In this document: positions 33,888-55,254 of the stretch, piece after piece
Numbering within the stretch: the first letter of the stretch is position 1
Layout of the letters: each line of letters opens with the position of its first letter
Assembly (NCBI GenBank): GCA_945946715.1
Contig: CAMEWU010000001.1
Location: forward strand, 1 to 57,702
DNA from: an uncultured Clostridium sp.
GTDB taxonomy: Bacteria; Bacillota; Clostridia; Lachnospirales; Lachnospiraceae
Reading direction: 5' to 3'
DNA length: 57,702 nucleotides
Position numbers and translations under genes: made by a program
Notes under the pieces: generated by a model
What the model saw: only the letters and a program-made list of their open reading frames with translations
Database searches by the model: none
Told to the model about the DNA's origin: nothing

Positions 33888-33910
33888 AGCAACCAGAAAA
33901 AGGAAAATAA

Positions 33911-34527: not shown

Positions 34528-34609
34528 AAAAATCTCTTATATATAATGATTCTTGTGTGAAAACGAATGAGAGTTATTTATGAATATTAGTTATAGGAGT
34601 AAGGAAAGT

Positions 34610-36349
34610 ATGAAGTTCAACCAAAGACTAAATGAGTATATTGAGGAATTACAATGTTCTGCCAAAGAGCTGGCAGAAGCATCCCGGCTTTCAGCAACGG
34701 TTGTCAGCAGATACCGGACAGGTGAGCGTGTTCCGGCAGCAGACAGTGAACAGCTTCAGAAGCTGGTATCCGGTATTGTGAATGTGGCTCAAAGCAAAGG
34801 AAAGAATGAACTGGAAAAAGAAATCGTTTTTCAGGAATTGGCGGACACATTAAAAGAGAATGATTGGAATTATGATATATTTTTGAAGCATTTTAATGCA
34901 ATTATACTGGTTCTTAATATCAATATAGCTGAGATGGCAAGGGGAATTAATTACGATGCCTCCTATATCAGCCGGATTCGTTCCGGTCAGCGCCATCCTG
35001 CTAATATGGAGAATTTTATTGAAAACATTAGTCAATTTATTGTAAAAAGATATAATAAAACTACAGATTTAGAAATCGTAGCACCATTATTGAATGTAAG
35101 TGTAGCTGATATAGAAGCAGAACCAAGATATCTGGCAGCATTGCTGGAATGGTTTTATAGCGAAGAATCCTCACAAAAGAAGGATGATATCAGTGAGTTT
35201 TTGAAACAAGTAGATGAATTTGATTTAGATGAGTATATTAAGGCCATTCATTTTGATGAAATGAAAGTACCACCGGCTCTACCTGTTCAGTTACCAACTT
35301 CAAAGAATTATTATGGGCTGGAAGCTATGAAAACAGGAACTTTGGATTTCCTGAAAGCGACGGTAATGGCAAAAAGCATGGAAGATGTATATGTGTTGGA
35401 TGATACGCCTATCGCAGATAAAGCAAAAGACTCTGATTTTCCAAAAAAGTGGATGTTTGGCATTGCAATGGTGTTAAAGAAAGGCTTACATATCCACATG
35501 GTTCATAATTTAAACAGGCCATTTGAGGAAATGATGTTAGGTCTGGAAGCTTGGATACCCCTTTATATGACGGGACAGGTTTCTCCGTATTATTTAAAAG
35601 GAGTTCACAATCAGGTGTTTGGGCATTTTCTGTATACGTCAGGAGTTGCTGCCTTATCCGGGGAAAGTATTGCAGACTATCATGACCATGGGAAATATTA
35701 TTTGACGAAAAACCGGACAGAACTTTCGTATTACCGCCAACGTTCAAAAGATATTATCAGTCAGGCAAATCCGTTGATGGAGATATATCGAAAGGCAGAA
35801 GAAGATACATTTCAGGCGTTTTTGAATCGTGATGCATTAGAAGATGGCTCCCGGCATGAATTGTTGTCGGCATTGCCAATTTATACGATTTCAGATGATT
35901 TATTAGTGCGTATGCTTCAACGGAATGGGATAGATAATGAGGAGCAACAGCAAATCATACAGAAAGTCAATGAGTTAAAGCGTATTACAGAAGAGATTTT
36001 GAAAAAGAATCCAATCCGCACAGAGATTCCGGAACCTACCAAAAAGGAATTTCAAGAGCATCCCATGCGCTTGTCATTATCAGGGATATTCTATGAGCAG
36101 GAAATTGTTTATACTTATGAAGAGTATCTGGAACATCTGGAGCAGACGAAAACGTTTGCAGAAATTCAGAAGAACTATAGTTTGCAGCGAATGAAAGTGG
36201 AAGCGTTCCGAAATATCCAGATAACCATTCATGAAGGAAAATGGGCAATGGTATCCAAGAATAAATGTCCGGCAATACATTTTGTAATCCGGCATCCGAA
36301 GCTATGTAATGCATTAGAGAATATGGTAACACCAATGATAGAACCATAA
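34610..36349 (+). CDS. Large XRE-type helix-turn-helix protein (two HTH motifs), function unknown
   Basis: LQCSAKELAEASRLSATVVSRYRTGERVP and NIAEMARGINYDASYISRIRSGQRHP. Start chosen at MKFNQRLNEY after AGGAGTAAGGAAAG. Confidence 0.6.
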   Translation: MKFNQRLNEYIEELQCSAKELAEASRLSATVVSRYRTGERVPAADSEQLQKLVSGIVNVAQSKGKNELEKEIVFQELADTLKENDWNYDIFLKHFNAIILVLNINIAEMARGINYDASYISRIRSGQRHPANMENFIENISQFIVKRYNKTTDLEIVAPLLNVSVADIEAEPRYLAALLEWFYSEESSQKKDDISEFLKQVDEFDLDEYIKAIHFDEMKVPPALPVQLPTSKNYYGLEAMKTGTLDFLKATVMAKSMEDVYVLDDTPIADKAKDSDFPKKWMFGIAMVLKKGLHIHMVHNLNRPFEEMMLGLEAWIPLYMTGQVSPYYLKGVHNQVFGHFLYTSGVAALSGESIADYHDHGKYYLTKNRTELSYYRQRSKDIISQANPLMEIYRKAEEDTFQAFLNRDALEDGSRHELLSALPIYTISDDLLVRMLQRNGIDNEEQQQIIQKVNELKRITEEILKKNPIRTEIPEPTKKEFQEHPMRLSLSGIFYEQEIVYTYEEYLEHLEQTKTFAEIQKNYSLQRMKVEAFRNIQITIHEGKWAMVSKNKCPAIHFVIRHPKLCNALENMVTPMIEP

Positions 36350-36420: not shown

Positions 36421-39400
36421 TTATTCTATCCATGCACCATCTTTATTCAAAGTATAACCGTCAATGACAGTATCATATGCCATTTCGCCGGACTCTTTCA
36501 GATAATACCAGGTTCCGCCATCATTGAACCAACCGGTCTTCATAGAACCGGAAGCATCCAGATAATACCAGTTATCATCCAACTTCAACCAGCCGGTCTT
36601 CATAGCACCGGACTCTGTGAGATAATACCAGGTTCCACCGTCGTTAATCCATCCCGTTGCCATAGCACCGGAATTGGTTAAGTAGTACCAGGTTCCACCG
36701 TTCTGAAGCCAACCGGTCTTCATTGCACCGGAAGCATCAAAGTAGAACCAGTCATTATTAATTTGCTTCCAGCCGGTTGCCATCCATCCGTCTGCATCAA
36801 AGTAATACCAGGTTCCGCCAATTCCCTTCCAAGTACTGGTTGGGTAAGTTGCGTCTGCATACTGATACCACCATTTGTTCCCGGACTGTTTCCAGCCTTC
36901 CTGTACCGGATTTTGAACCCAGGCTCCTGAAGAACCTACATAGCTTCCTCCAATCCAGGTAGATTCTGCCATTTTACCGTTGCTCTGGAAATAATACCAT
37001 GTACCGTTAATTAACTGCCAACCGGTCAACATTGCTCCTGAACTATCCAGATAATACCAGGTTCCGTCAATTTCCTGCCAGCCGGTTTGCATAACAGCAT
37101 CCTTGTTGAAATAATACCAGATGCTGTTGATTTCTTTCCAGTCTGTGACAGCAACGCCGGTATCATCTAAATAGTACCATGCGGTATCTTCTTCATACCA
37201 CTGGCTGGTAACGATTTTGCCATCCTTATATAAGACCTTGGTTCCGTCTTCCTTTACATACCATCCATTGTCCGGAATTGCCGGTGTTGGATCCGCCGGA
37301 GTTGAAGGTGTTGGATTCTCCGGAGTTGGAGGTGTTGGATCCGCCGGAGTTGGAGGTGTTGGATCTTTTTCTGTTGTTTTATAAGCAATTGCATATTTTG
37401 AAAAGCTGTCTGTTTTAAAGGTGACTGTCTTTGCAGCAGCATCGTATGTAGCAGAAATTACCTCATAAGTACCATCGTGCTTCTGGTGTACAATTTCAAC
37501 ATCATCCGGCAACTCTTCTGATACAGTCAGAGAAATGGTTGCTTCATTTGTTAAATCTGTAATTTCAGTCGACCATACATCCTCCTCGCTTCCTCTGTAT
37601 ACAACATTGTTAAGATTCAAATCAAGATATGAATCAATGGAATATCCATTGGCAGCGGTTGTAAAGCCGGAAACATCTGTGGCTGTAGGCTGAACATCAT
37701 CAACACTTAGAACCGCAGTACCCATTGAGAATTCATCTGCATTTTCAGCATTAATTCCGATGCTACCGGTTGAAATTGCCGTAGAGCTTGTAGCTACTTT
37801 ATCCTCTACCGGTGCACAAGTTGCACCAAGGTGACAGTTGCCATTTGCAATGGTAAATGTATATTCTGCAACCTTATCCGGATTCGAACCAAACGCACCA
37901 CCATTTGGACCAAATGTTACAACCTGATAACCATATCTAGGAACTAATCGTACGGTAAGCTTACCACCTGCAATCAGAGTTGCTTCACCACGGTTTGGAT
38001 CTTCACTAAAACTTAAGTAAGCGTGATTGGCATTATTCATATCTTCCAGGTTATCATATGTTATTGTCTGACCTGCTCTATCCTGATATGAAAAACTTAC
38101 GAATTCTACAAGTGTGTGATCCAGGAATTGATCCGAACCTGCATCTTCTTCCAGATTGGACCATAGGAAGTTACCGGTTGGGAAATATCGATTCTGCGCG
38201 TCAATCTGTTCCTCACTACAGGTAAATTCTATCATTATTTCTAATACTCCATCTGCCATACTGTCAGGTATCACAAAGGAAAGACCGCTTTCGGATACCA
38301 AATCATCACGATTTGGATTTCCAATTGTATCCCAATCAACATCAACGCCATTAAATTTCATTCCAAAATAATCTAATTCAAAACCATCATTTGGCTTTGC
38401 ATATATGGTGAATGTCTTTCCCGGTGTTAATGAAGAAGGGTAGGTTACATCATTCGCTGATATATCCGGATAATTGTATGTGTCATATTTGTATCCAACA
38501 GTTCCGTTGATAGCATTCCGCACCTGAAAATGGATTGCATCCGCTCCAGAACCATAAGTACTTTCTGAACCAATAATTTCCATATTTGCAGTAACATTAT
38601 AGGTATCAGCATATGGTACAGTCAGAATAAATGATATTGTCTGAGACTGACCATTCAAATCCATGGCTTCAAGAATATCCCATTCACGAGTAGCTTCATT
38701 GGAACCCGGGATCTGACTTGAGTAATCTACGCCATTAATTTTAATTTCAGTATATCGCATATTAATTTGATTCACGAATTCAAATTCTACTGCATGAGAT
38801 CCTCCTACCTTTGGAGTAGCTGGATCCGCTGCATTATATGGATAAGTAACGAAAGGTTTTTGCGTAACAATATCCATTTGAGATCCTTCATCATAAGAAC
38901 GCTCCTGTGCATCTGCCCCGTTTATGTAATAAATTGCAGTAACAGGGAGACCGGCACCATCATGTAAATCTGTACCGCTAAAATGAATAGTGGAAGTTTT
39001 ATTTCCATCAAAATTGTATTCTTTCGATGCACCAGAGCCAGCGTGGCCACCGCCACCAGGCTGAGGGTCATTGCCACCATTGTCAGAACCAAAGCCAAAT
39101 TCTACTTCAAAGCTGGAATTTGCAACGGTACGTCCTTCATCCAATAAATCAGATAAATCAATTGTTACGCCATCGTTGCCTGTAAAACTTTCTGCTTCAT
39201 TGCCGGTTGTGCTATACTTACTTGCACCATTCACCCGAACGTTGACTCCTCTTCCTGCGTCAAGAGTATAGCCGCCATTTGGTTCGAATTTAAGTGTGAT
39301 GTTATTTGATGCACTTACATTCACTGAAGCATAGGAATTGGTTTCCGCTGTCTCAGCCACCATTGTAAAGTTCGAATCACCATCCAGCTTGTACCATATA

Positions 39401-39897
39401 TGACCGCCGGTCACTGCATTATCTTGACACTTAAAAGAAACTGTGCCTGGTTCTGCAGGCTGAGGGTCACCACCGCCACCGCCAGCACCGTTGTCAACTC
39501 CAAACTCTACATCATTAAGCGCTGTATTACTTGTGATGGCATAGCCCGCTTCGCTAATAAGAGCATTCTTGATTGTGCTCTCAGAATCGGTTTCAAGTAA
39601 ATTAGTATCGCCCTGTTTTAGTTGAATACCGGTCCAATCAACCTTATAACCCCCATTTGGAACAATTCTTACGGCAACCGCAGTCTGTGTGCCTTCGGTG
39701 TAATCTGTCCATCCAGAATTGTCAGTTGCTTTGTACTGCACCGTACCTTCCCCTTTATCAGCTTCACTCCGAAAAGTAACGGATAGGGTGACGACTTCTG
39801 CATGTACAGGAACAATTGGCTGACTACTCATAATAATGGAAAAAGCCATTAAAGCACTGAGAAGTCCCGCCAGTTTTCGTTTGACCTTTAACTTCAT
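36421..39897 (-). CDS. 1158-aa secreted surface protein: repeated beta-rich modules, a Pro/Thr linker, and ~13 C-terminal choline-binding-type cell-wall-binding repeats
   Basis: Signal peptide MKLKVKRKLAGLLSALMAFSII. Recurring PNGGY-x-(L/V)D modules. PTPPTPADPTPPTPENPTPSTPADPTP linker. GW-x4-G-x-WYY-x3-SGAM-x-TGW repeats. Confidence 0.85.
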   Translation of the reverse strand: MKLKVKRKLAGLLSALMAFSIIMSSQPIVPVHAEVVTLSVTFRSEADKGEGTVQYKATDNSGWTDYTEGTQTAVAVRIVPNGGYKVDWTGIQLKQGDTNLLETDSESTIKNALISEAGYAITSNTALNDVEFGVDNGAGGGGGDPQPAEPGTVSFKCQDNAVTGGHIWYKLDGDSNFTMVAETAETNSYASVNVSASNNITLKFEPNGGYTLDAGRGVNVRVNGASKYSTTGNEAESFTGNDGVTIDLSDLLDEGRTVANSSFEVEFGFGSDNGGNDPQPGGGGHAGSGASKEYNFDGNKTSTIHFSGTDLHDGAGLPVTAIYYINGADAQERSYDEGSQMDIVTQKPFVTYPYNAADPATPKVGGSHAVEFEFVNQINMRYTEIKINGVDYSSQIPGSNEATREWDILEAMDLNGQSQTISFILTVPYADTYNVTANMEIIGSESTYGSGADAIHFQVRNAINGTVGYKYDTYNYPDISANDVTYPSSLTPGKTFTIYAKPNDGFELDYFGMKFNGVDVDWDTIGNPNRDDLVSESGLSFVIPDSMADGVLEIMIEFTCSEEQIDAQNRYFPTGNFLWSNLEEDAGSDQFLDHTLVEFVSFSYQDRAGQTITYDNLEDMNNANHAYLSFSEDPNRGEATLIAGGKLTVRLVPRYGYQVVTFGPNGGAFGSNPDKVAEYTFTIANGNCHLGATCAPVEDKVATSSTAISTGSIGINAENADEFSMGTAVLSVDDVQPTATDVSGFTTAANGYSIDSYLDLNLNNVVYRGSEEDVWSTEITDLTNEATISLTVSEELPDDVEIVHQKHDGTYEVISATYDAAAKTVTFKTDSFSKYAIAYKTTEKDPTPPTPADPTPPTPENPTPSTPADPTPAIPDNGWYVKEDGTKVLYKDGKIVTSQWYEEDTAWYYLDDTGVAVTDWKEINSIWYYFNKDAVMQTGWQEIDGTWYYLDSSGAMLTGWQLINGTWYYFQSNGKMAESTWIGGSYVGSSGAWVQNPVQEGWKQSGNKWWYQYADATYPTSTWKGIGGTWYYFDADGWMATGWKQINNDWFYFDASGAMKTGWLQNGGTWYYLTNSGAMATGWINDGGTWYYLTESGAMKTGWLKLDDNWYYLDASGSMKTGWFNDGGTWYYLKESGEMAYDTVIDGYTLNKDGAWIE
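36424..37250 (-). repeat. Coding repeats: ~20-aa cell-wall-binding (CW_binding_1-like) units
   Basis: Periodic TGW...GTWYY... in translation and ~60-nt periodicity in the DNA. Confidence 0.85.
37283..37365 (-). repeat. 24-bp tandem repeat (~3.4 units) encoding the PTPPTPAD linker
   Basis: GGTGTTGGATCCGCCGGAGTTGGA-type units read on the plus strand. Confidence 0.9.
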
Positions 39898-41510: not shown

Positions 41511-41545
41511 AAGGAGACAGAACCTCTATGAGGAACTGTCTCCTT
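41511..41545. terminator. Hairpin between convergent genes, overlapping the last codons of the minus-strand gene
   Basis: AAGGAGACAG-15 nt-CTGTCTCCTT. Confidence 0.5.
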
Positions 41546-44042
41546 CAGTGTGATAGGGACGTTTTCTTCGCTGAATATATACTATCATGCCGGCACCAAG
41601 AAGAAGTCCCAATAGGGATACTATGCTACCGGTCAGCAGATGAGGATATACAATGTGTAATGTAACCTGTGGTTCATCTATGACCAGTAGATTATTTTCG
41701 TTATGAATGGCTTGCTGTGTCCGGAAATTATCCTGAAAAGCAAGGGTAGTATTTACCGGTACCTTTTCGCTTTCAATGATTATGGTATTTCCCTCCATAG
41801 AAATAGAAATTGGAATTATTTCCCGGTTCGGTATCTGGCTGTATTTTAATTGAAAACAGTCATCTAAGATACTCCATAAGTCCGGATTGTCTGTGTTCAT
41901 GGCAAAGTAAGCCAGGTTCAGACCCAGATAGTATATGTTTTCGTTGGAAGAGTCATAGCTTAAAAATGGTATAATTTCTCCGCCTTCATTGATATAACCT
42001 AAGACCTGATCCGGTTCATTGGTATATCCGGTAAGCCATTCCTCAGAACCTTCCGGAAACTGTCCTGCAGCAATGCTGTCATTCTTGTAGTGGAGATTCG
42101 GAAAAGTATGGGTCAAAGTAATGGTGTCCTGTGTTATTCCCAAAAAGGTCTTTTCCATCCGCCCATTTTCCGGAATGTGGGCACAGTCAATAACAATTCG
42201 TGTACCCTGATTTGCTACCGTTTGTAGCAGGGATTCTGCTTCTTTTTGATTGTGATAGGAGAATCCACTTAAAAACAAAGTATCATATGCGGTTAATTCT
42301 TCCACAGAATAATCGTCGATATAATTGGACATCCCGGTTGTAAAAGTCGGATAATAAATGGACAAGGCGGCTCCGTATTCTCCGATGGTAAGGCCGGAAT
42401 ATTCAGTTGCTACACCAAAGGTTTCCGGTGTGCTGGCTTGGAATAAGTAGGTGGCCTCAGTTTCTTCAATTAACTCATATCCACAGGCTTTTGCAGCATC
42501 CAGCAGCTGTTTCTCCTGATGAACAAGAGATTTTCGAACCATTACGGCATCATCTCCTAATTCAATGCTGCGGTCGAACACATAGAGATATTCTTCCCGT
42601 TCCAAAGCTTCATTTACCAGCATAATATTCTGAGCAGTAGCAGCTCCCTGCCAAGCCCATCCAAAGGTATAATCTACAGCATCGTCACCGGTTACCATGC
42701 TCCAGGATGGATAAGAACCAAAGCTGCTTAAGTCCATTAAACTCCCCCGCTGTTGAACATGTTCTTTTAATAATAGGCTGTCTGTTTTAGCAACTTCTGG
42801 AGCCGGTGTATAGTATCGGGGCAGACAAGCCAGTGAAACAGCACTGTCTGCAATCATCAAAGACATAAATAGGATGGCATATTTCTTTCTTAATGTGTTC
42901 CATTCCAGCAGAGACAACAAGAAACAGGCATAAGCAAGAGCATTAAAGCGGGTCATCCAAAGAAATTCTCCCAAAGGAATATGTCTGGTAACCGTAGCTG
43001 CTGCCGGGGTAGTACCCAGCAGGACAAGTAGTGCAAAACAGAAACCGGCTTTCTGTTTTTTATTTGCCAGTAAAATACCCAATATGGTTATAATCAGAAT
43101 AGATATTCCAAAGTAATATGTGTCCGCCACACCGGTCACCCGGTTTTCAGGATTCAGGGAAGTAGTCAAAGAAAAGGTCAGCAGGTCATGAACCTGTGAG
43201 CTGGAATCACCCATAGAAAGCATACCCCCTGACAAGGCAGGAATAAACCAGATACCGGCTATCAGGATTCCGATTACCATAGCGGTCAAAGCTTCGATAT
43301 CTTGTTGGAAATGACGGTTTAAGAATCCGTCAAAGCATAAGAACAGAAAGCATCCGATTCCTACAATGGCAGTAAACATCAGATGGGTAAAGGTCATAAG
43401 GCTCATGGTCAGCATTAATCCAATAAGACCGGAACGCTGTTGCTTCCGGATGTATCTCCAAAGGAAATAGATTACATAAGGAATCCATACAGATGTCAGA
43501 ATTCGCGGCATATTTCCTTCACAGAAAAATACCCGGATATTATCCGGCAGGAAGGTCCAGAGCAAAGCACAGCCAATGGCAATCACAGGACGCTTACTAT
43601 CCTTTCCCATAAGGAGAAACGGAAAACCGCCGAGGAAGCAGACACAGCCTGCAAACAGATAATAGGCATGTAGAATATCGCCTCCGGTTATCCATTGAAG
43701 CAATGCCATAAAGTAATAAGCCAGTGGTGGCCAGTAACGGTAAAGTTGGATGCCATTATACCACTGAGGAGAATACAGGGGATACCAGTCACCAGCCAGA
43801 ATATGATCATACATATACTTGGATTTATACATATGTCCCCAGACATCATTACCGGAAGGCTCCCAGTGGTTCAACCACAAAAAGGCAGTGAAAGTCATGG
43901 CGGTAAGCAGTAGAAGACCTGCACCAATCCAGAAGAGCAGAGTGGCTTTCTTTTCTATGCTTGGTTGTGTTTGTTTTGGTTGTATTGGTTTCATAGGTTT
44001 TGTCCTCCATGTAACGGATACAGGTACATTAATCATCTTCAA
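41526..44042 (-). CDS. 838-aa polytopic membrane protein (GT-C-like N-terminal half, extracytoplasmic C-terminal half, terminal TM + RRKR); exosortase-G-locus-associated
   Basis: More than 10 predicted TM helices in aa 30-400, a soluble region, and the terminal segment LLTGSIVSLLGLLLGAGMIVYIQRRKRP. The ORF overlaps the upstream gene in the same operon. Confidence 0.6.
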   Translation of the reverse strand: MKMINVPVSVTWRTKPMKPIQPKQTQPSIEKKATLLFWIGAGLLLLTAMTFTAFLWLNHWEPSGNDVWGHMYKSKYMYDHILAGDWYPLYSPQWYNGIQLYRYWPPLAYYFMALLQWITGGDILHAYYLFAGCVCFLGGFPFLLMGKDSKRPVIAIGCALLWTFLPDNIRVFFCEGNMPRILTSVWIPYVIYFLWRYIRKQQRSGLIGLMLTMSLMTFTHLMFTAIVGIGCFLFLCFDGFLNRHFQQDIEALTAMVIGILIAGIWFIPALSGGMLSMGDSSSQVHDLLTFSLTTSLNPENRVTGVADTYYFGISILIITILGILLANKKQKAGFCFALLVLLGTTPAAATVTRHIPLGEFLWMTRFNALAYACFLLSLLEWNTLRKKYAILFMSLMIADSAVSLACLPRYYTPAPEVAKTDSLLLKEHVQQRGSLMDLSSFGSYPSWSMVTGDDAVDYTFGWAWQGAATAQNIMLVNEALEREEYLYVFDRSIELGDDAVMVRKSLVHQEKQLLDAAKACGYELIEETEATYLFQASTPETFGVATEYSGLTIGEYGAALSIYYPTFTTGMSNYIDDYSVEELTAYDTLFLSGFSYHNQKEAESLLQTVANQGTRIVIDCAHIPENGRMEKTFLGITQDTITLTHTFPNLHYKNDSIAAGQFPEGSEEWLTGYTNEPDQVLGYINEGGEIIPFLSYDSSNENIYYLGLNLAYFAMNTDNPDLWSILDDCFQLKYSQIPNREIIPISISMEGNTIIIESEKVPVNTTLAFQDNFRTQQAIHNENNLLVIDEPQVTLHIVYPHLLTGSIVSLLGLLLGAGMIVYIQRRKRPYHTEGDSSS

Positions 44043-45108
44043 TCATACTGATGACATAGGAACGGGAAGGGGTTTCACTCATTTCCATCATAAGGAATAA
44101 CCAGCCCTCTTCATTTAAAATGGTACTAAGCTGTTCTTTAAAATAATCACAGCAGTTTTCCAGTGTAGGATTAATGATATCGAAAGGAGGACATTCATTT
44201 AAATCCTTATCCTGATATTGATCCATAAAAGCCTCAATTTTCTTTTCCAAATCCGTGAACTGAATAAAATTCTGTTGCATCTTAATCACATGGAGTGTAA
44301 TTTCCCAGGTGTGAGGATGCATGGCACCCAGTACGCCATTAATATAAATGGCATGTCGGGCATTTAAGTAAAACTTGAATTTATACTGTTTATACCGATT
44401 ACTTTTGCCACTGTGGTGAATGGTAATGGAGGTGTCTTCACCATCCGGTTTGGCTGTATTCTCTAATCGTTCGAATTCCTGATTGCGTTCCAATAGTTCT
44501 TTCTGTGTTTGGGTAAGAAGCCGTTCTGTTTTGGTCCAGGCACCGGATAGGGCAGTGACAGCACCAATTGCCAGAAGCAGCAGGACCGCAAAAAGCAGAA
44601 TGATATATACCTCATAGGTAGTAATACTACCTGTAGATAAAAACTGGGAGCGGTCTGTAATCATTCCTACGGTATAGGTATCAGCTCCTACATTAAAATC
44701 GGTGGTAGTAAGTATTCCATTTTGTGCCTTCAGGTTTTCAAAGAAGGATGCCCGGTCTTTCAAAGTGGTTAGCGACTGGGTGGTTGACAGGTTTTTGGCA
44801 AAGATAACCTGCTCATTCTGAATCAGGAAGGTCCAGCTTCCCCCGGAAACAGGCACATGGGTAGACAGATATTCCACGACCTCTTCGGAAGAAGCACCTG
44901 TTTCATACATGGTAAAAAGGGTATCTGAAAGCTGATTACAGTACTGCTGCTGTGTATTGGTATCCCGGGTCACGTAACTGTTGGTAATTCCATTCAGAAT
45001 AGTAAGTAACAGAACAATGGAAGCAACGGTTACCAGTATAATAGTAAGGATTATGGTGGTCAAACGACTGGCAGGATGCTGTTGCCAGTGGAAGGTTTTC
45101 TTATTCAT
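44029..45108 (-). CDS. Membrane protein with TM / extracytoplasmic domain / TM / coiled coil and a C-terminal 6-pyruvoyl-tetrahydropterin-synthase (PTPS)-related domain
   Basis: TM segments at aa ~17-37 and ~178-200. C-terminal FKFYLNARHAIY...MHPHTWEITLHV resembles the PTPS/QueD His-ligand pattern. Confidence 0.6.
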   Translation of the reverse strand: MNKKTFHWQQHPASRLTTIILTIILVTVASIVLLLTILNGITNSYVTRDTNTQQQYCNQLSDTLFTMYETGASSEEVVEYLSTHVPVSGGSWTFLIQNEQVIFAKNLSTTQSLTTLKDRASFFENLKAQNGILTTTDFNVGADTYTVGMITDRSQFLSTGSITTYEVYIILLFAVLLLLAIGAVTALSGAWTKTERLLTQTQKELLERNQEFERLENTAKPDGEDTSITIHHSGKSNRYKQYKFKFYLNARHAIYINGVLGAMHPHTWEITLHVIKMQQNFIQFTDLEKKIEAFMDQYQDKDLNECPPFDIINPTLENCCDYFKEQLSTILNEEGWLFLMMEMSETPSRSYVISMIEDD

Positions 45109-46486
45109 CTGTATTTACCTCCGATTTCCATTTCTGAAGCTGCCGACGGATTCCTTGAAAATCATGTCGGATAACATTACAAAAAGCAGCCCATTCCTCT
45201 GAGAAATTCTTCATTTTCCAGCTCTGCGTTCCTTTAATGGCATTAATGATGCCGGCAAAGCGAAACCAGAATATCATAAAATTATAAAGAGGCAGCAGGG
45301 CAATCAAATACCATTTTCTGGCATAATAGCGTTGTAACTGTTTCTCTTTTGATAAAAACATCAGAATGCAGATATAAAGCAAAAGAGTAGAAAACACATA
45401 TAACAGGTACATGATGATAACGGATTTTACAATCAGCATAATAGGATAATTAATAAATGCAAGGCATATTAAAGCAAAATACCAAATCATCCGGGGAAAT
45501 GCAAAGGTATGGTCATACATCAGTAAGCGAATGACAAAATCGGATAAGAAGCCTTTGCCAAAAAACATACCACGTCCCTTAAACATATGCATGACTTCAA
45601 TTTCTCCCCGTTGCCAACGCTGGCGCTGGATATAAAGACGGTTCAAGTCTTCAATAGGGTCAACAAAGAAATATGCATCTTCACATAATGCCACCTGTTC
45701 CTTCAAGGTGTCCCGAATCTGGAAGGTTACATGTGTATCCTCACAAATAGTATCTGTATTATATAGCTGTGTTTTTAAAATGGCTGACTTTCGAAAGGCA
45801 GAAAAGGCACCGGATAGAGTAAATATGCTGTTAAACTCTGATTGAAAATTCCGTCCGGCTAAAAAGGCCTGACAGTATTCGAAGAATTCCAGCTTCCGCA
45901 GCAGACGGAGAGGAAAAGATTTAGTTTCATCAATCATTTCCGGATTTGTCATAATGGTACCGGTCAGACAGTCAATGGTATCTTCCTCTTCAAATCGGCG
46001 CACCATATTGTACAGGGCTTCCGGATGCAGAACTCCATCACTGTCGATGTGAATAATGTATTTTCCATAGCTGTTAAATAAAGCCAGATTTAATGCTTTG
46101 GATTTCCCCTGCTCCGAATTCATCCAGGTGATAGTTAGCTCAGGGAAGTCCTCCTGGCATTGACAATATACCTGAAAGCTGTCATCGGTACTTTCATTAT
46201 TGACTAACATAATATAAATCAGTTTACTGTCATAGGTAGAATCATTTATGGATTTGATGCATGCATAAAGCGTCTCGGCAGAGTTATATACCGGAATAAT
46301 CAGTGTAATTTCCGGGCAATACTGCAATTCTTCCTCTTTTTTTCTGAAGATTCTACGCTTCAGCAAAATAAAAAAGTCAAAAACAGTGGGAATAATTTCC
46401 ATTACAATGGGAATGATAACCCATGCCATCCAAAAGAGAATCGGACTATGCAATAAATCATTCATGAATGTCATATCGGAATGCAC
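45101..46486 (-). CDS. Processive family-2 glycosyltransferase (PgaC/cellulose-synthase-like), exosortase-G-associated type
   Basis: IIPVYN, HIDSDG (DxD) and QRQRWQRG (Q-x-x-RW) motifs, with N- and C-terminal TM helices. Exact start uncertain (ATGs at 46486, 46474, 46465). Confidence 0.8.
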   Translation of the reverse strand: MHSDMTFMNDLLHSPILFWMAWVIIPIVMEIIPTVFDFFILLKRRIFRKKEEELQYCPEITLIIPVYNSAETLYACIKSINDSTYDSKLIYIMLVNNESTDDSFQVYCQCQEDFPELTITWMNSEQGKSKALNLALFNSYGKYIIHIDSDGVLHPEALYNMVRRFEEEDTIDCLTGTIMTNPEMIDETKSFPLRLLRKLEFFEYCQAFLAGRNFQSEFNSIFTLSGAFSAFRKSAILKTQLYNTDTICEDTHVTFQIRDTLKEQVALCEDAYFFVDPIEDLNRLYIQRQRWQRGEIEVMHMFKGRGMFFGKGFLSDFVIRLLMYDHTFAFPRMIWYFALICLAFINYPIMLIVKSVIIMYLLYVFSTLLLYICILMFLSKEKQLQRYYARKWYLIALLPLYNFMIFWFRFAGIINAIKGTQSWKMKNFSEEWAAFCNVIRHDFQGIRRQLQKWKSEVNTDE

Positions 46487-47054
46487 CTACTTTCTGTCGA
46501 ATTACTTGTGCTTTGGTAAATACATAGAAGTACAAGGCAATTGTGCAGGCATAGAACACCAGTCTTCCTACAAATGAATGTGCAAAAAAGTATAGACCTT
46601 CCCCACCCCAGTAAATCATTTGACAAATGATAAAGATACGCAGAACATTTGCCATAAAAATGCTAAAGATTCCAATGACACTGATGACAATCTTTTCATA
46701 ATACTGATAGGCTGGGAAAAACCAAAGAAGTGCCAGAAATGCGAAGGTCTCAATAATACCGGAACACTCAAAATCTACATAAAGAGAAAGATTCGTACTG
46801 CCTCTGGAAATAAATAAAAGCCCTTTTTCAAAATAGGAAGAATAAGTACCGGTTATTTCTCCCAATAAGCCGGATACGGCAGCAATCGCATTCTGCATAG
46901 GGGCAAGCAGAATCGGTTGCAATACTATGATTGCAATCGTAAAGAGTCCTGCACTTCCAATGGTAAAAAACCAGAAATCCAGCTTGGCACGTTTTAAAAC
47001 AGTCAAAATGTAAACCCATACTATAGTTATCAGGATAATAATCCAATTAATCAT
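46458..47054 (-). CDS. xrtG: Exosortase-family transpeptidase, Gram-positive type (XrtG-like)
   Basis: 198-aa polytopic protein with the exosortase signature residues: DFECSGIIE (Cys), ANVLRIF (Arg) and FAHSFVG (His). Confidence 0.7.
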   Translation of the reverse strand: MINWIIILITIVWVYILTVLKRAKLDFWFFTIGSAGLFTIAIIVLQPILLAPMQNAIAAVSGLLGEITGTYSSYFEKGLLFISRGSTNLSLYVDFECSGIIETFAFLALLWFFPAYQYYEKIVISVIGIFSIFMANVLRIFIICQMIYWGGEGLYFFAHSFVGRLVFYACTIALYFYVFTKAQVIRQKVGAFRYDIHE

Positions 47055-47799
47055 ATTGTGTTACCCTTCTCTTTTTATAGGTAAAATACCCTATGACACA
47101 ACAGGTAAGAGCAGCCAGAACACCAAGCAAAGGTCCGGTAGATGTGCCAACCCATGTAACGCCTTCTGCACCAATATTCGGATTCGTGATAGTGATAGAA
47201 CCTACATTACTGATATTCATACCGGTAAGACGGGCAAAGTCATCTAAACGGAATGCAAATTCGATTTCATCTCCCTTTGTATCCGGTTGGTGATTCTGAT
47301 CGTATATGGTAATCGCTGCCTGACTGTCACAATACTTGGTGTAATCAATAATCACGCCCATATTGGTGTAAATTCCTTCCGGCAGAGAACGCATTTCATT
47401 ATTATAGTAATCCCAGTCAATACTGCCGTCTTCATGAACCGGATAGATACCCAGTGCATGAGACTGACCGTTAATGGTAATAGTCATTTGCTGAACCTGA
47501 ATCTGTGAAGTATACAAATCATTCATGGAAAAATGTACATAGACCATTTCTCCATCGGTATAAATCTGCCCTTTGTGTACACTTTCAGCATTATTAGAGG
47601 AATAAGTAATATTCGTAACCGGATAAGCAGACCAGTCATCATAATATCCATCAATCTGTATTCCGGAAGATACTTGAAGCAGTTCATCTTCAGCTGTAGC
47701 ACCATAAGCATAGATAGAACCAAAGCCGGTGTAGAATAGAAACCCTAAGCTGAGAAAAAATGTTGCAAAACGTTTTATATGATTGTTATGTTTCATCAT
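47047..47799 (-). CDS. Secreted protein with a C-terminal sorting-signal-like tail (Firmicu-CTERM-type candidate XrtG substrate)
   Basis: Signal peptide. The C-terminus is VGTSTGP, then the TM helix LLGVLAALTCCVIGYFTY, then KKRR. Its stop overlaps the xrtG start. Confidence 0.6.
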   Translation of the reverse strand: MMKHNNHIKRFATFFLSLGFLFYTGFGSIYAYGATAEDELLQVSSGIQIDGYYDDWSAYPVTNITYSSNNAESVHKGQIYTDGEMVYVHFSMNDLYTSQIQVQQMTITINGQSHALGIYPVHEDGSIDWDYYNNEMRSLPEGIYTNMGVIIDYTKYCDSQAAITIYDQNHQPDTKGDEIEFAFRLDDFARLTGMNISNVGSITITNPNIGAEGVTWVGTSTGPLLGVLAALTCCVIGYFTYKKRRVTQYD

Positions 47800-47832
47800 T
47801 CATCACTCCTGTTCTGATGGTATGTCATTTCT

Positions 47833-48246
47833 TTATTCATCCTGTACTTGTGAAAGGTCGGTTATATCCCGGTAAGAAGCCGGTAAATGAATTCGGCTGG
47901 ATACCTGATAGATACTTAGTGGTGTTGTATAAATATCCAATTGATACAGATTCACACCAATTTCATAAAGGGAAGTCTTTAAGTCCTCAAAAAATACGTC
48001 CCCGATGTTTTCCATATTTGGAACCAGAGTTTGAAATGCAGGTATGTCATTTAGGACACAATGCTCATACTGATTCAAATACTGTGTTACGATTTTATCA
48101 ATATCAAAAAACATAATTTGTTCTGTCTGCTGTTCTTTACTTACATATATTGTGATAGTAAAGGTATGTTGGTGTTGATGTTCTTTTTTATAATCAAAAC
48201 TATGTGTAGCATTAAAACGGTACTGGTATTTATAATACTTCTGCAT
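47833..48246 (-). CDS. Small PTPS-related protein (first gene of the exosortase operon)
   Basis: YRFNATHSF...HQHQHTFTITIYV shows a His pattern of the T-fold PTPS/QueD type. GAGGTG RBS before MQKYYKY; the ORF track start at 48267 is an extension. Confidence 0.6.
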   Translation of the reverse strand: MQKYYKYQYRFNATHSFDYKKEHQHQHTFTITIYVSKEQQTEQIMFFDIDKIVTQYLNQYEHCVLNDIPAFQTLVPNMENIGDVFFEDLKTSLYEIGVNLYQLDIYTTPLSIYQVSSRIHLPASYRDITDLSQVQDE

Positions 48247-48467
48247 AAAAAGCACCTCAAATATCATTTTCTATCGTAGGATACTATAATACTTTTTTGT
48301 CGAATTTTCATTGTAAATTTATGTTGTTTTATGTAAAATCTAACAGTTAAATAAAATTTTATAATTGATTTTATGGTTGTATATGATATCGGCAGGGTAA
48401 AATTAAAAAAATAGACAGAATACCATACATTTAAATGTTATTTTAGTGGCTCAAAGTTACTAGTCGT

Positions 48468-48496
48468 TTGACAAAGAATAGGGAAGTTGATACTAT
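48468..48496 (+). promoter_or_regulatory. Sigma-A-type promoter
   Basis: TTGACA, 17 nt, TACTAT. Confidence 0.5.
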
Positions 48497-48533
48497 GATG
48501 TTATAACTTGTAAATAATAAGGAGGAAGAGAAA

Positions 48534-49456: not shown

Positions 49457-49918
49457 CTAAATCTGTTTAATTAAGTTCACCATTTCAATAGCAGACAATG
49501 CACAGTCATAGCCCTTATTTCCGGCTTTGGTACCGGCACGTTCAATTGCCTGTTCAATACTATCCGTGGTTACAACACCGAATAATACCGGAACCTCTGA
49601 TTGTAAAGAAACCTGTGCGATTCCCTTGGATACCTCATTACATACATAATCATAATGACTGGTAGCTCCGCGAATAACAGCACCTACACAGATGACTGCA
49701 TCATACTTACCGGATTTTGCCATTTTTTCAGCAATCAATGGGATTTCAAAGGCACCCGGTACCCAGGCAGTGGTAATGTCTTCTTCCTTAACACCATGAC
49801 GTACCAAACCATCAATAGCACCACCTAATAATTTGCTGGTAATGAATTCGTTAAAACGGGATGCAACGATTCCTACCTTCATGTCCTGTGCAACTAATTT
49901 TCCTTCTAAAGTGTTCAT
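49457..49918 (-). CDS. ribH: 6,7-dimethyl-8-ribityllumazine synthase
   Basis: [21 protein letters not shown] and THYDYV motifs. Confidence 0.95.
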
Positions 49919-49941
49919 TATAAAATCCTCCTTACAATATG

Positions 49942-50856
49942 TTATTTATTATAATTATTTAAATGAGTATCTATATAATCCATAAATGGTTTCTTACTGA
50001 CTTGCTCTTGGTTGTTTTTGTACCAGTCATATGCTTCCTGTAAACCATCGAATAATGGCTTTGTATCAGGTATGAATTGGAGTTGCTTTGTTACATCAAG
50101 ATAGTATTCATAATCATAGAAACTAAAATATTTTCGTTGGTCTATATCTTCGAATACAGATATGAATTCCACTGGTTTGTTTACAATACCATAGCAAAGT
50201 TCCACCCATTCACGAATGGAAACGGTCTCTTGGTTTCCTACATTAAAAATATGCTGATAAGGCTTGGCGTCTAAGATGGCATCTATAAATCGGCATAAAT
50301 CATGGACGTGGAAAAACTGCAATTGCATTTCTCCGTTTTCAGGCAGATAGAATTTTCGGTTTTCCAAAGCACAGTCAAAAACAAATGCTTCTCTGTAAAT
50401 ATCATTCATGGGACCATATAAATATGGTGGACGAAGAATGTAAGCATTGGGATTCCTATCTAAAAGTGCCTGTTCTGCTTCAATCTTATCCGTTCCATAT
50501 TTGCCCCAATATTTATTAGCCCCTACTTGGGTTGCTTCTGTAAATGGCTGTAGAGAATACTCAGGATATACAGCACTGGAGCTGATGAGAACATATTCAT
50601 CATAGCTTCCTAAGGCATCAAGTAACAAATCAACGTCTTTGGCAGTATAGGCAGTAACATCAATTACAGCATCGAAATGAAAAGGACGAAGAACATCACC
50701 TAAATGATTCCTGTCTGCCTGAATCAGCTTTGCTCCTGCAGATTGTGGTCTGCTGTTTCTGTTGAGTACATAAACATCATAGCCTTTGGCAATATAGTAT
50801 TCTGCTACATATCTGCTGACAAATACAGTTCCGCCGGTTACAAGGATTGTTGGCAT
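49942..50856 (-). CDS. NAD-dependent epimerase/dehydratase (SDR) family protein, inserted between ribBA and ribH
   Basis: N-terminal Rossmann motif [11 protein letters not shown] and a Y-x3-K region (YGTDK). AGGAGG RBS. Lies 23 nt upstream of the ribH start. Confidence 0.7.
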
Positions 50857-50877
50857 CTATAGTTCCTCCTGTTATTG

Positions 50878-51474
50878 TAAATTATGGTTTAACACAATAA
50901 CCTTCAACCGCGGTTCCGAGGATATAGGTCTGCACGAGACGCGTTAATCGCACTTCGTGCTCACGGGTAGTGCACTGACGTGCACGTAGGTCGTAAGGAA
51001 TCCTCCCACTTCGTGGGTCCCTCCTTGCGACAAGATACACTCCTGCCAGCACGTAGCGGTACGTAAGGCTGTGCATTAACATGTACAAAGATTGTTTATA
51101 TCTAAGCACAGCCTAAGGACCGACGTGCTTCTAGGGCCTCGTGCGGACCTATATCCTCAAACCGCTGTGTTAGAAATCGTCAAAAATCATAATTTATAGT
51201 GTGGCAAGTAGTAAGGCTCCGCGAGAATTATAGTAATTTTAACTTGCGCGGAGCGGTACTATTTACTCCAATATAAATTATGGGTTTTACCAGAGTAGAT
51301 GTTCGGCGGATGAATCTATATGCTTGATGCAGGCTCTAAAAGTACGTCGGTACTTGGATTGCGTTTTTTGCAATCCTATGTACCGCTACGTACTGACCGA
51401 AGCGAAAGCGGGTCTGCATTAAGCATATAGATTCGAAGCCGAATGGTATACTGGTGCGTTAAACCATAATTTAT
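50878..51474 (+). ncRNA. Unclassified ~600-nt GC-rich, densely self-complementary noncoding element: module 1 at 50878-51196, hairpin at 51216-51254, module 2 at 51274-51474. Structured RNA(s) or a MITE-like insertion; strand assignment tentative.
   Basis: Each module is closed by an inverted pair of the motif TAAATTATGGTTT. Two 21-bp helices (50918-50938/51138-51158 and 51312-51332/51414-51434) each carry one G-T pair that is a wobble only on the plus strand. GAAA tetraloop hairpin at 51402-51409 and several local hairpins. Confidence 0.45.
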
Positions 51475-51485
51475 CAAACCATAAT

Positions 51486-52697
51486 TTATTTACCCAGATG
51501 CGAAAAAATATGCCCCATCTTTTCTTCCTTGGTTTTCATATAAAAAGCATCATATTTTTGTACCGGAACTTCAATTGGTACACGCTCTTTAATCTGCAAT
51601 CCATAACCATCCAGTCCGTATATTTTACTTGGATTATTGGTCAGCAGACGTAATTCCTTGATACCTAAATCCCGAAGAATCTGGGCTCCTACCCAGTATT
51701 CCCGAAGGTCTGGTGCGAAGCCTAAGTCTAAGTTGGCTTCTACAGTATCTCGCCCTTTTTCCTGTAGCTCATAGGCTTTCAATTTATTGATTAATCCGAT
51801 ACCCCGGCCTTCCTGTCGCATATACAGAAGTACGCCCCGGCCTTCCTTTTCAATCTGTCGCAAAGCACTGGCTAATTGCTGTCCGCAGTCACAACGCAGG
51901 GAGCCGAATACATCTCCGGTTAAGCATTCAGAATGAACCCGGCAAAGCACATCCATGCCGTCGCCGATATCGCCCTTCACCAAAGCAATATGGTGTTCGC
52001 CGGTAATATCACTGACATAGCCATATGCCTTGAAGGTTCCGTATTCCGTTGGAAGATTTACTTCTGCTTCCCGACTGACATGTTTTTCGTGGAGACGGCA
52101 GTAATCCTGTAAGTCTTTGATGGTAATAAATGCAATGTTGTGTTCCTTTGCAATTTCAATTAATTCCGGTGTACGCATCATATGTCCGTCCTCTGCCATG
52201 ATTTCACAGCAAAGGCCGCAAGGTTTCAAACCTGCCAGTCGCATTAGGTCTACCGTTGCTTCTGTATGCCCGTTTCGAACCAGAACACCGCCGGATCTGG
52301 CAACCAGAGGAAACATATGTCCCGGTCTGCGGAAATCACTTGGTTTTGCGTCATCGGCAACTGCATTCATTGCAGTAATGGAACGTTCATATGCAGAAAT
52401 ACCCGTAGTGGTATCTATATGGTCGATACTGACGGTAAAAGCAGTGCAGTGATTGTCCGTATTCTCTGATACCATCTGAGGGACATTCAGTTTGTCAGCC
52501 AGTTCTTTTGACATTGGCATACAGATTAAGCCTTTGCCATGAACAGCCATGAAGTTAACATTTTCGCCGGTAGCAAACTCAGCAGCACAGATAAAATCCC
52601 CTTCATTTTCCCGGTCAGGGTCATCGGTACAGAGAATAATCTTTCCGGCACGTAGTTCGTCTAATGCATGTTCTATGGTTGAGAATTCAAACTCCAT
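51486..52697 (-). CDS. ribBA: Bifunctional 3,4-dihydroxy-2-butanone-4-phosphate synthase / GTP cyclohydrolase II
   Basis: [14 protein letters not shown], and CDCG...GRGIGL motifs. Confidence 0.95.
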
Positions 52698-52764
52698 AGT
52701 AAATTCCTCCTAACTATATTTGAATGATTTGATTTTGAATGGAAGTCTTTTGTATAAATTTTAT

Positions 52765-53442
52765 TTAAAATCCATGTTCCCGTAAGAAGTCCATGGTAAT
52801 ACCGCCGGAAGTATGCGTGTTAGAAGCAGTTTCATCCAAAGCAGGTGTTCCGGTGTAGGGGAGTAGCAGCTTTTCTACATACTTTCCAATCACATCATTT
52901 TCCAGATTTACCATATCTCCGGGCTTCCGTTTTAAAAGAGTAGTTTCTTCTCCGGTATGGGGAATAATAGACACCTTAAATACGGATTCATTTACATATG
53001 CCACTGTTAAACTGATACCATCAATGGCAATGGAACCTTTATTTACAATCAGGTGCAGGATAGAAGCAGGAGCCTGAATGGTTACCCAAACAGCATTACC
53101 TTCCGGTTCTAACGCCTGAATAGTTCCGGTGCCATCAATATGACCACTGACGATATGTCCGCCAAAGCGTCCGTCTGCCGCCATGGCACGTTCCAGATTC
53201 ACACTGGCACCAATGGGCAGGCTGCCCAAATTAGTTTTTCGTAAGGTCTCTGCCATGACATCTGCTACAAAACTGTCTCCTTGCAGCTTGGTTACAGTAA
53301 GGCAGACACCATTTACTGCGATGCTGTCGCCGATATTCGTTCCTTCCAGCACTTTTTTAGCTTTGATTTCAATAAAACCGGAGGTCTGGTGACCAATAAT
53401 TTTTTTTACCGTTCCGGTTTCTTCTATAATGCCTGTAAACAT
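52765..53442 (-). CDS. ribE: Riboflavin synthase
   Basis: MFTGIIEETG start and duplicated GDS-AVNGVCLT / GSIAIDGISLT repeats. Confidence 0.95.
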   Translation of the reverse strand: MFTGIIEETGTVKKIIGHQTSGFIEIKAKKVLEGTNIGDSIAVNGVCLTVTKLQGDSFVADVMAETLRKTNLGSLPIGASVNLERAMAADGRFGGHIVSGHIDGTGTIQALEPEGNAVWVTIQAPASILHLIVNKGSIAIDGISLTVAYVNESVFKVSIIPHTGEETTLLKRKPGDMVNLENDVIGKYVEKLLLPYTGTPALDETASNTHTSGGITMDFLREHGF

Positions 53443-53481
53443 AATGATAGGTTCTCCTTTCTGCAAAGGTTAAAAATACAC

Positions 53482-54573: not shown

Positions 54574-55136
54574 GGCACCTCCCGGGAAATGGACTCTATA
54601 TAATTTTTTGTATGTGTCATAATAACAGATAAATTAGTAATGTCTTTAAAAGCATCGCCGGTTTCCAGGGAATGATTTCCGCCCTCGGTGATAAAAAGAG
54701 GAAGACCATGCTCCTCACAGCCTTGTATTACAATATCGGTTGATACCCACGGGTCATTGGTTCCGGTAAATACAATACCTTCCGTTCCCATGAAATCAAA
54801 GGAAGCAGCCACAGGGGTGTAATATACATGATAAGTGGTCAACGGATGCTCTTTTGTATAAGCAGCTGCAACAGCCGTTCCTACACTCTTGGAAATAAAC
54901 AGAATATCACTATAACCGGAAAAATCAATCTTGCTTAAGATGTCTTCTGTCTGAGATAGAGCAGTTAAGAAGGCTTTCTTCATTTTGTCCGGCGAACCCT
55001 TGATATCACGTTCAAAGGGACCATAGGTGACTTCCATTATCTCAAAGCCATATTCTTTTGCCAGCTTCTTGCTATAATATAGAAGTGGCTTATCGGTATG
55101 ATAACCAATTCCCGGAAAAATAACAGCTAATTTCAT
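54570..55136 (-). CDS. Small alpha/beta-hydrolase-fold protein, first gene of the FMN-riboswitch-controlled rib operon
   Basis: Candidate triad FISKSVG (Ser), GTNDPW (Asp) and GGNHS (His). Its stop overlaps the ribD ATG (ATGA). Confidence 0.6.
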   Translation of the reverse strand: MKLAVIFPGIGYHTDKPLLYYSKKLAKEYGFEIMEVTYGPFERDIKGSPDKMKKAFLTALSQTEDILSKIDFSGYSDILFISKSVGTAVAAAYTKEHPLTTYHVYYTPVAASFDFMGTEGIVFTGTNDPWVSTDIVIQGCEEHGLPLFITEGGNHSLETGDAFKDITNLSVIMTHTKNYIESISREVP

Positions 55137-55254
55137 GTGAGCTACTCCTTTCTGAATTTCAGGATTTGTAGAACATTTGTAATTTGACGAAAGAGAGAAG
55201 TACGTTAAATTATAAAAGCCCTAATGCAAAATCAGGGCAAATGTACATAGAAAA

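Follow-up and report, generated by a model that had tools for sequence, protein, structure and literature searches.

Six co-directional open reading frames (ORFs) on the minus strand of a 57,702-nucleotide (nt) stretch of contig CAMEWU010000001.1, from an uncultured Clostridium sp., form a complete copy of the exosortase G (XrtG)/Firmicu-CTERM gene cluster. They span positions 41526-48267 of this stretch, which we call the window and to whose whole length all coordinates refer. When the proteins of the window were scanned with hidden Markov models (HMMs) from NCBIfam and Pfam and judged by curated cut-offs, five NCBIfam models and PF10131 scored above cut-off, and it is this result, together with the invariant Cys, Arg and His residues of the exosortase and the conservation of the gene set, that identifies the system. 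An initial annotation, made from the sequence alone, had matched the gene set to the XrtG system of TIGRFAMs and had proposed a check with models for XrtG, its family 2 glycosyltransferase (GT2), the PTPS-related domain and Firmicu-CTERM. Every one of these models is matched above its curated cut-off and the neighborhood is as described, with nothing essential that differs from the system as defined. The operon is a standard copy of an already known, computationally defined system, and what is newly seen is detail: the loss of active-site residues from the PTPS-like domains, the fusions in which these domains take part, their replacement of a GGDEF-like domain, the accessory glycosyltransferases of related loci, and a resemblance of the substrate to CBM9 modules.

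The gene from which the system takes its name (46458-47054, minus strand) encodes a polytopic protein of 198 amino acids (aa), an exosortase-family Cys transpeptidase or protease. It matches the XrtG model TIGR03110 over residues 5-189 with 203.2 bits (cut-off 102.75), the general exosortase/archaeosortase signature TIGR04178 with 53.8 bits (cut-off 23), and PF09721 with 38.8 bits. The ECSG, NVLRI and AHSFVG signatures that had been read from the protein are present, and the presumed catalytic residues C97, R139 and H159 align without exception in 21 homologs, down to 54% identity. Five hydrophobic segments are predicted, and because of the positive-inside rule and these hydropathy segments Cys97, Arg139 and His159 would be placed near the outer leaflet, where the GTSTGP motif of the substrate would also lie. 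A search of PDB sequences with the XrtG profile gave no match, so no solved relative is detectable by sequence. In common with XrtA (PEP-CTERM) and ArtA (PGF-CTERM), XrtG is a polytopic enzyme with conserved Cys and Arg that goes with a tripartite C-terminal signal and is linked to exopolysaccharide or glycosylation genes. However, it is much smaller, has one dedicated substrate per locus rather than dozens, goes with the motif G[TS][SP]T[GA]P instead of PEP or PGF, and belongs to a Gram-positive host without an outer membrane.

The predicted substrate is the 250-aa Firmicu-CTERM protein encoded at 47047-47799 on the minus strand (TIGR04145, 140.2 bits; cut-off 50), which consists of a signal peptide, a beta-sandwich ectodomain and a C-terminal sorting signal. 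Read from the sequence, this signal occupies residues 218-250 (47050-47148, minus strand) and comprises G-T-S-T-G-P, a transmembrane helix and a KKRR cluster, in agreement with the STGP, helix and KKRR seen at the outset. Among 32 aligned homologs G218 is invariant and T221 nearly so, and all share a conserved ectodomain, NPNIG..G....G[TS][SP]T[GA]P, a helix and a Lys/Arg cluster. In the wider set, 62 of 77 substrate orthologs carry G[TS][SPT][TS][GAVSIT][PALIVFTM], mostly in the form G[TS][SPT][TS][GA][PA]. There is one tripartite tail per locus, and no further Firmicu-CTERM-like tail was found in the window besides that of the 250-aa protein. The AlphaFold2 (AF2) model of the substrate is a beta-sandwich (pLDDT 80) whose top Foldseek matches are a putative carbohydrate-binding protein (4jpq), CBM9 modules and DOMON-like subunits; the resemblance to CBM9 is weak (E 0.013 or worse, TM-score about 0.3) and only suggestive of an ectodomain that may bind glycans.

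The four remaining genes, all on the minus strand, are just as readily recognized. The GT2, a membrane-embedded protein of 461 aa (45101-46486), reaches 661.8 bits with the XrtG-associated model TIGR03111 (cut-off 363.95). PTPS1 (47833-48267), a small cytoplasmic PTPS-related protein predicted to have a T-fold, matches TIGR03112 with 87.5 bits (cut-off 69.35) and PF01242 with 62.4 bits. A second domain of this kind, PTPS2, forms residues 241-358 (44035-44388) of a 359-aa protein with two transmembrane helices (44029-45108), referred to below as the two-TM protein, and reaches 145.5 bits with TIGR03112 over residues 242-353; the C-terminal PTPS-like domain that the initial annotation had placed there was thus correctly recognized, and the AF2 model shows it as a T-fold. 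The last gene (41526-44042) encodes an 838-aa membrane protein that matches PF10131 ('PTPS_related') with 523.6 bits (cut-off 26.4). It had been called a GT-C-like giant, and PF10131 is indeed a family of the GT-C clan.

To see how widely this gene set is kept, one genome per species (185,579 species) was scanned, and 402 genomes were found to encode a relative. The counts of loci that follow rest on the best 80 loci from these genomes, which belong mostly to Lachnospiraceae, Coprococcus, Eubacterium, Saccharofermentans, Oscillospiraceae and Ruminiclostridium, the closest being that of a Lachnospiraceae metagenome-assembled genome (MAG; 87% identity), which assigns the window to this family. 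Cultivable carriers include Coprococcus aceti, Ruminiclostridium sufflavum DSM 19573 and Lactiplantibacillus plantarum. When the six proteins of the window were compared with the 80 loci by tblastn, XrtG and an adjacent GT2 were present in all 80. Of the PTPS-like proteins, the first was matched in 72 loci and the second domain in 76; for the CTERM protein the count was 73 and for the GT-C protein 67. Misses are mostly at contig ends, and clustering of all ORFs of the loci yields the same core gene set. The operon is thus conserved as a unit in other Firmicutes, as had been expected of it, with the genes in one of two arrangements. After the operon of locus L027 a TetR regulator and an ABC/FtsX transporter take the place of the PF10131 gene. 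Three loci of Lachnospiraceae type come from MAGs labeled as Bacteroidales (L002), Bifidobacterium catenulatum (L029) and Alistipes (L050), labels that likely reflect bin contamination or mislabeling.

Exosortases are widespread, and we know of none in bacteria with a defined chemistry. The XrtG/Firmicu-CTERM system itself was reportedly defined by computational means by Haft, Payne & Selengut 2012 (J Bacteriol 194:36). Database homologs already bear the name 'exosortase family protein XrtG', and the NCBI pipeline names the system automatically. The literature searched touches on the system only briefly, once in an L. plantarum transcriptome (PMC12854382) and once in a list of L. brevis genes; no experimental characterization of it was found there, which bears out, as far as this literature shows, the earlier statement that it has no experimentally defined product. 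In this respect the copy in the window is like the XrtG family as a whole. Since XrtG is the smallest version of an exosortase system, with one substrate, one synthase and no outer membrane, in abundant gut Firmicutes, it is a convenient model for what exosortases attach their substrates to.

The initial annotation had left unexplained why PTPS-like proteins accompany a polysaccharide synthase and a protein-sorting transpeptidase, and the residues of their domains narrow the puzzle. Alignment to solved PTPS/QueD proteins reveals that the Zn-binding histidines are kept in both domains (H22, H32 and H34 in PTPS1; H252, H264 and H266 in PTPS2), as they are in 56-59 of 65 type-1 and in 77 of 77 type-2 sequences. 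However, the catalytic Cys is replaced by Lys28 in PTPS1 and Leu260 in PTPS2, and in the family alignments neither paralog type has Cys as one of its common residues there. The Asp-His pair of the active site is Gln-Asp/Asn in PTPS2 and Glu-His in the PTPS1 of the window, a combination not conserved in type 1. The Glu that anchors the pterin ring is retained as E345 in PTPS2 and in 75 of 77 type-2 sequences; in type 1 this position is mostly Glu or Asp, but Thr114 in the PTPS1 of the window. The active-site check suggested in the initial annotation therefore has a divided outcome, with the Zn triad kept and the catalytic Cys and the Asp-His pair absent. Both domains score above the gathering cut-off of the Pfam PTPS domain (62 and 51 bits), but remain far below the cut-off of 89.25 for the QueD model TIGR03367 (36.2 bits for PTPS1, 25.5 bits for PTPS2), and PTPS1 alone reaches 32.5 bits with the PTPS/QueD subfamily model TIGR00039, for which the cut-off is 125.5. 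Because of the lost Cys and Asp-His pair and these low equivalog scores, the two domains are, judged by sequence, metal-binding T-fold proteins and not pterin synthases.

Compared with PTPS/QueD proteins (T-fold, COG0720), then, the PTPS-like domains retain the fold (Foldseek TM-score 0.65-0.73 between the C-terminal domain of the two-TM protein and QueD/PTPS), the three Zn histidines, the NPT(L/S)EN helix cap and, in PTPS2, the anchoring Glu. They differ in the Cys, in the Asp-His pair (variable in PTPS1) and in their occurrence in fusions with membrane proteins, and their subfamily is small, counting 542 representatives (50% identity) out of 1.84 billion proteins. At 60 of 77 loci each of the two paralogous types is represented by exactly one domain.

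The protein that carries PTPS2 differs among lineages. Its AF2 model (pLDDT 82) consists of a first transmembrane helix, a small alpha/beta ectodomain, a second transmembrane helix, a long cytoplasmic helix and the T-fold, with a coiled coil between the second helix and PTPS2; as modeled, it would have the layout of a membrane sensor with PTPS2 at the output end. The ectodomain has only weak SPFH/FliL/PAS-like Foldseek matches. This fusion of PTPS2 to the two-TM protein is found in the clade of the window (L001-L010), whereas in most other loci the two-TM protein (356-403 aa, 66 loci) is encoded by a separate gene right after the GT2 and ends in a GGDEF-like domain. The latter was recognized by a profile match to diguanylate cyclases in PDB (E 4e-4) and by PF00990, which matches six of 22 members (best 2e-9). 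Such proteins occur in L011-L079, for example at L013:12940-14037, L057:12713-13870 and L061:3118-4329. The domain is degenerate, in that GGDEF (here KGRF, SATEF or NNEF) and RxxD are not conserved. The N-terminal 210 aa of the two-TM protein in the window are homologous to the two-TM protein of other loci, and the clade of the window has replaced the GGDEF-like domain by a PTPS-like domain. In four Coprococcus loci there is in addition a diguanylate cyclase of about 500 aa with an intact GGDEF (L014:16121-17614, L016:16106-17626, L032:13536-15029 and L033:3950-5470), directly downstream of the operon in the two that were inspected (L016 and L032), which hints at control by cyclic di-GMP (c-di-GMP) in this lineage.

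Fusions with other partners are equally informative. In about ten lineages a PTPS-like domain forms the N-terminus of the GT-C protein (PF01242 + PF10131; 980-1145 aa), and ten such fusions (765-1145 aa) occur among the 150 best representatives; examples of 980-1089 aa are L062:5862-8804, L066:6177-9176 and L073:6023-9292. This arrangement, a Rosetta-stone link that ties the small PTPS-like protein to the GT-C protein, is probably the origin of the Pfam name 'PTPS_related'. Tandem PTPS-like domains in one chain also exist in the protein database (P0273, P0281, P0300, P0313 and P0329), which suggests that the two paralogs of the operon associate. A triple fusion of two-TM protein, GGDEF-like domain and PTPS2 was found as well. 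On a 2.2-kb metagenomic contig, PTPS2 is fused to a HisKA-HATPase core after a two-TM/GGDEF-like gene (L081:1094-2155); coming from a single contig, this fusion could be real or an assembly artifact. An apparent PTPS-HTH_Crp fusion (P0242) was set aside as a likely assembly chimera, its N-terminus being identical to that of P0241. Taken together, residues and fusions indicate that the PTPS-like proteins are not pterin synthases and would work together with the GT-C and two-TM proteins at the membrane.

What the PTPS-like pair does there can be read in more than one way. We lean, with some hesitation, toward a ligand-sensing role over a catalytic or a purely structural one. A possible though doubtful alternative is that the domains are working zinc-dependent enzymes whose target is a sugar precursor, cytoplasmic or lipid-linked, much as ArnD acts between ArnC and ArnT. 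The His triad, invariant in type 2 and kept in most type-1 domains, and the nearly invariant Glu of type 2 are what would be expected of enzymes, as is the direct fusion to the GT-C protein, but the nucleophile and general acid/base of the known family are gone and type-1 domains have lost the triad in several lineages. Moreover, the fusion positions, at the output end of a sensor-like two-TM protein, beside a GGDEF-like domain and before a histidine kinase core, are those of signaling modules.

The identity of the 838-aa protein as a GT-C glycosyltransferase candidate derives from its family, since PF10131 belongs to Pfam clan CL0111 (GT-C) and is related by HHpred (E about 1e-15) to families of the PMT/STT3 type (PMC7801869). 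The protein has an N-terminal half with many transmembrane helices, an ectodomain of about 390 aa and a last transmembrane helix. In all 64 sequences aligned Asp66 is invariant, along with Gly64 and His70; it lies in the first loop outside the cytoplasm, just past the first transmembrane helix (33-51). Some related loci add genes that are familiar from glycosylation: 26 of 80 carry a small GT2 whose best matches, all below cut-off, are synthases of polyprenyl-phosphate sugars (PpgS, AglJ, PgfS and ArnC), 13 of 80 a GtrA-family protein and one of 80 a YfhO. These small GT2s and GtrA flippases of related loci suggest that the GT-C enzyme uses lipid-linked sugar donors. The expanded loci L057 (11920-12699, 13895-14332 and 17315-19981) and L062 (13163-15811) carry the small GT2 similar to polyprenyl-phosphate-sugar synthases, the GtrA-family protein, and a second PF10131 paralog or YfhO. 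The XrtG operon shares with CsbB/GtcA/YfhO, GtrABC and ArnC/ArnT (PMC8035078, PMC5836110, PMC7389260) a GT-C-clan protein whose first outer loop holds an invariant acidic residue, and in related XrtG loci this protein is accompanied by a small GT-A glycosyltransferase, a GtrA-type protein or YfhO. The window, unlike these systems and some other XrtG loci, has the GT-C component only. In none of the transmembrane glycosylation systems compared was the GT-C/PTPS-like fusion of some XrtG lineages seen.

Although we favor an exported polymer as the target of the GT-C protein, it might instead glycosylate the Firmicu-CTERM protein, by O-glycosylation as in Pmt or PgfS/PgfM, with the polymer of the GT2 as a separate product. 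We judge this unlikely. The kinship of PF10131 to protein mannosyltransferases and STT3 is consistent with it, as is the resemblance of accessory small GT2s to PgfS and AglJ, among others, and 28 of 77 substrate orthologs have an N-terminal extension of at least 100 aa, which in nine of the 28 is Ser/Thr-rich. However, neither the substrate in the window nor most of its orthologs have a Ser/Thr-rich region, and the GT-C protein itself, like polymer-modifying GT-C enzymes, possesses a large ectodomain.

Polymer synthesis by the GT2, as the favored account has it, agrees with its motifs. D101, D148xD150, E249-D250 and Q287xxRW291 occur in at least 95% of 68 sequences (67 orthologs and the protein of the window), and the DxD and QRQRW noted at first sight correspond to D148-S-D150 and Q287-RQRW291. 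Hydrophobic segments 11-41 and 327-374 flank the GT-A domain, and additional conserved hydrophobic stretches follow up to about residue 415. By HMM, the closest characterized relatives are PgaC/IcaA and NodC. Within PDB, a sequence search matched only the GT-A half and no membrane synthase.

From this similarity it could be argued that the operon is a biofilm operon of the ica/pga type, for poly-N-acetylglucosamine (PNAG), with incidental neighbors. PgaC/IcaA is in fact the best GT2 model after TIGR03111 and matches over nearly the full length. Nevertheless its 129.4 bits are far under the equivalog cut-off of 422.3, neither the partners IcaD and IcaC/PgaD nor the deacetylase IcaB/PgaB was found among the operon genes in the NCBIfam and Pfam scans, and the neighbors co-occur in 67-80 of 80 loci across families, so they are not incidental; this explanation is very improbable. 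On the strength of its motifs and flanking membrane segments, and given the low PgaC/IcaA score, the GT2 is by sequence a synthase of the processive type and, by this membership test, not a PNAG synthase. The wider comparison with IcaAD/PgaCD, Listeria PssC/PssE (PMC4125290) and B. subtilis YdaK-YdaM (PMC5422440) leads to a similar picture. All have a GT2 with D, DxD, ED and QxxRW followed by a membrane partner, and in most XrtG loci this partner has a degenerate GGDEF-like domain at its end, a trait of PssE and YdaK too. The XrtG loci differ in the GT2 score and the missing deacetylase, their GGDEF-like domain is without the RxxD inhibitory site (I-site), and the protein in the window has a PTPS-like domain instead.

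Least credible is the explanation that the PTPS-like genes serve pterin or queuosine biosynthesis and are located here by chance, for in spite of the Pfam scores and the fold shared with QueD/PTPS, the equivalog scores are low and the catalytic Cys and Asp-His pair are absent family-wide. The tight linkage of the domains to XrtG loci and their fusions with membrane proteins also speak against it.

Beyond the identities of the parts, we consider the following account of their working probable. The GT2, which has the motifs of cellulose, PNAG and chitin-oligomer synthases, would be a membrane-embedded processive synthase that builds a sugar chain from a cytoplasmic nucleotide-sugar and extrudes it. 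Its partner or regulator would be the two-TM protein, whose gene lies right downstream and is translationally coupled. On the outer face, the GT-C protein might add sugars from a lipid-phosphate donor, most likely to the exported polymer and less likely to the sorted protein. The 250-aa protein would be exported by Sec and retained through its C-terminal helix until XrtG cuts at GTSTGP and hands the new C-terminus to an acceptor, which may be a glycan or a lipid; such processing would make a possibly glycan-binding beta-sandwich part of the polymer layer. The PTPS-like pair would form a cytoplasmic zinc-binding T-fold hub whose two members probably associate and tie the GT-C and two-TM proteins together.

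Several points weigh against this account. Its steps are inferred, with no experiment on them found in the literature searched, and the low PgaC/IcaA score does not allow the polymer to be assigned as PNAG. When the profile of the GT-C candidate was compared with PDB sequences no GT-C match was obtained, and an hhalign comparison with a single YfhO (from L062) was not significant (E 0.083). A small GT2, GtrA and YfhO were sought in the 57.7-kb window and none was found, and the two-TM protein there has no GGDEF-like domain; donor pathway and regulation are for this reason inferred from relatives, although the small GT2 and GtrA could be encoded elsewhere in the source genome. At least three complete XrtG loci (L010, L027 and L032) have no adjacent PF10131 gene, so the GT-C component is not strictly obligatory in cis. 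A reading of the GGDEF-like domain as a c-di-GMP receptor is weakened, since the I-site RxxD is not conserved. In addition, the likeness of the substrate to CBM9 is weak, and a Zn triad invariant in type 2 fits catalysis as well as sensing.

A more specific version of the account, which strikes us as quite improbable, is that XrtG transfers the cleaved C-terminus of a CBM9-like substrate onto the nascent GT2 polymer, or uses it as a primer or cap, and that the PTPS-like pair is a new class of cytoplasmic zinc-dependent sensor that binds a guanine- or pterin-like ligand and gates synthase and GT-C protein in place of PilZ or a degenerate GGDEF domain. If true, the XrtG system would build a covalent conjugate of protein and glycan.

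The layout of the operon departs in part from the six overlapping, translationally coupled genes originally described. Three junctions do overlap, namely CTERM/XrtG (8 nt), XrtG/GT2 (17-29 nt) and GT2/two-TM protein (8 nt), but PTPS1 and the CTERM gene are separated by a 33-nt spacer, and the two-TM and GT-C genes overlap by 14 nt only if the latter begins at a TTG. The probable start of the GT-C gene is Met17 at 43994, which is conserved in orthologs and preceded by GGAGG, and this start leaves a gap of about 34 nt. For the GT2, the ATG at 46474 is the probable start. PTPS1 would be 144 aa long if translation began at its first ATG, and 137 aa if it began at the ATG at 48246; the latter start, which gives the length first reported for this PTPS-related protein, appears the better supported because its Shine-Dalgarno sequence is better than that of the upstream ATG. 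A candidate sigma-70-type promoter (TTTACA-16-TACAAT, 48310-48337, minus strand) was found upstream of the first gene by a consensus scan. It remains a candidate only, since promoter and terminator scans of the region gave no more matches than expected from shuffled sequence. A riboswitch or other leader upstream of the operon was considered and rejected, as nothing reaches Rfam gathering thresholds near 48268-48530; in the window Rfam matches only an FMN riboswitch and a T-box, both away from the operon.

The operon has a convergent MATE gene on one side and a divergent DUF5684/MscL pair on the other, and these flanks are not conserved in relatives. A gene for an 1158-aa secreted protein with many choline-binding (cell-wall-binding) repeats and Pro/Thr-rich linkers (36421-39897, minus strand) is also a neighbor of the operon but is conserved with it in none of the 80 loci. 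A 991-aa GH26 mannanase with a CBM11-like region (28421-31396, plus strand) ends in GTSTQNNSKIVGK, a transmembrane helix and KRKNNQKKK. The resemblance of its GTST ('GTSTQ') to the Firmicu-CTERM motif is probably due to chance, because it lies nine residues from the helix and the protein has no NPNIG domain. The T-box leader (33906-34153, plus strand; 110 bits) lies about 430 nt ahead of a gene for a 589-aa protein (34580-36349, plus strand) with only an N-terminal HTH_3 match, an unusual pairing in that no aminoacyl-tRNA synthetase or amino-acid gene comes after the leader. The FMN riboswitch (55293-55407) precedes a riboflavin operon (49457-55407, minus strand), in which a gene for an NAD-dependent epimerase/dehydratase (49942-50856) sits between ribBA and ribH.

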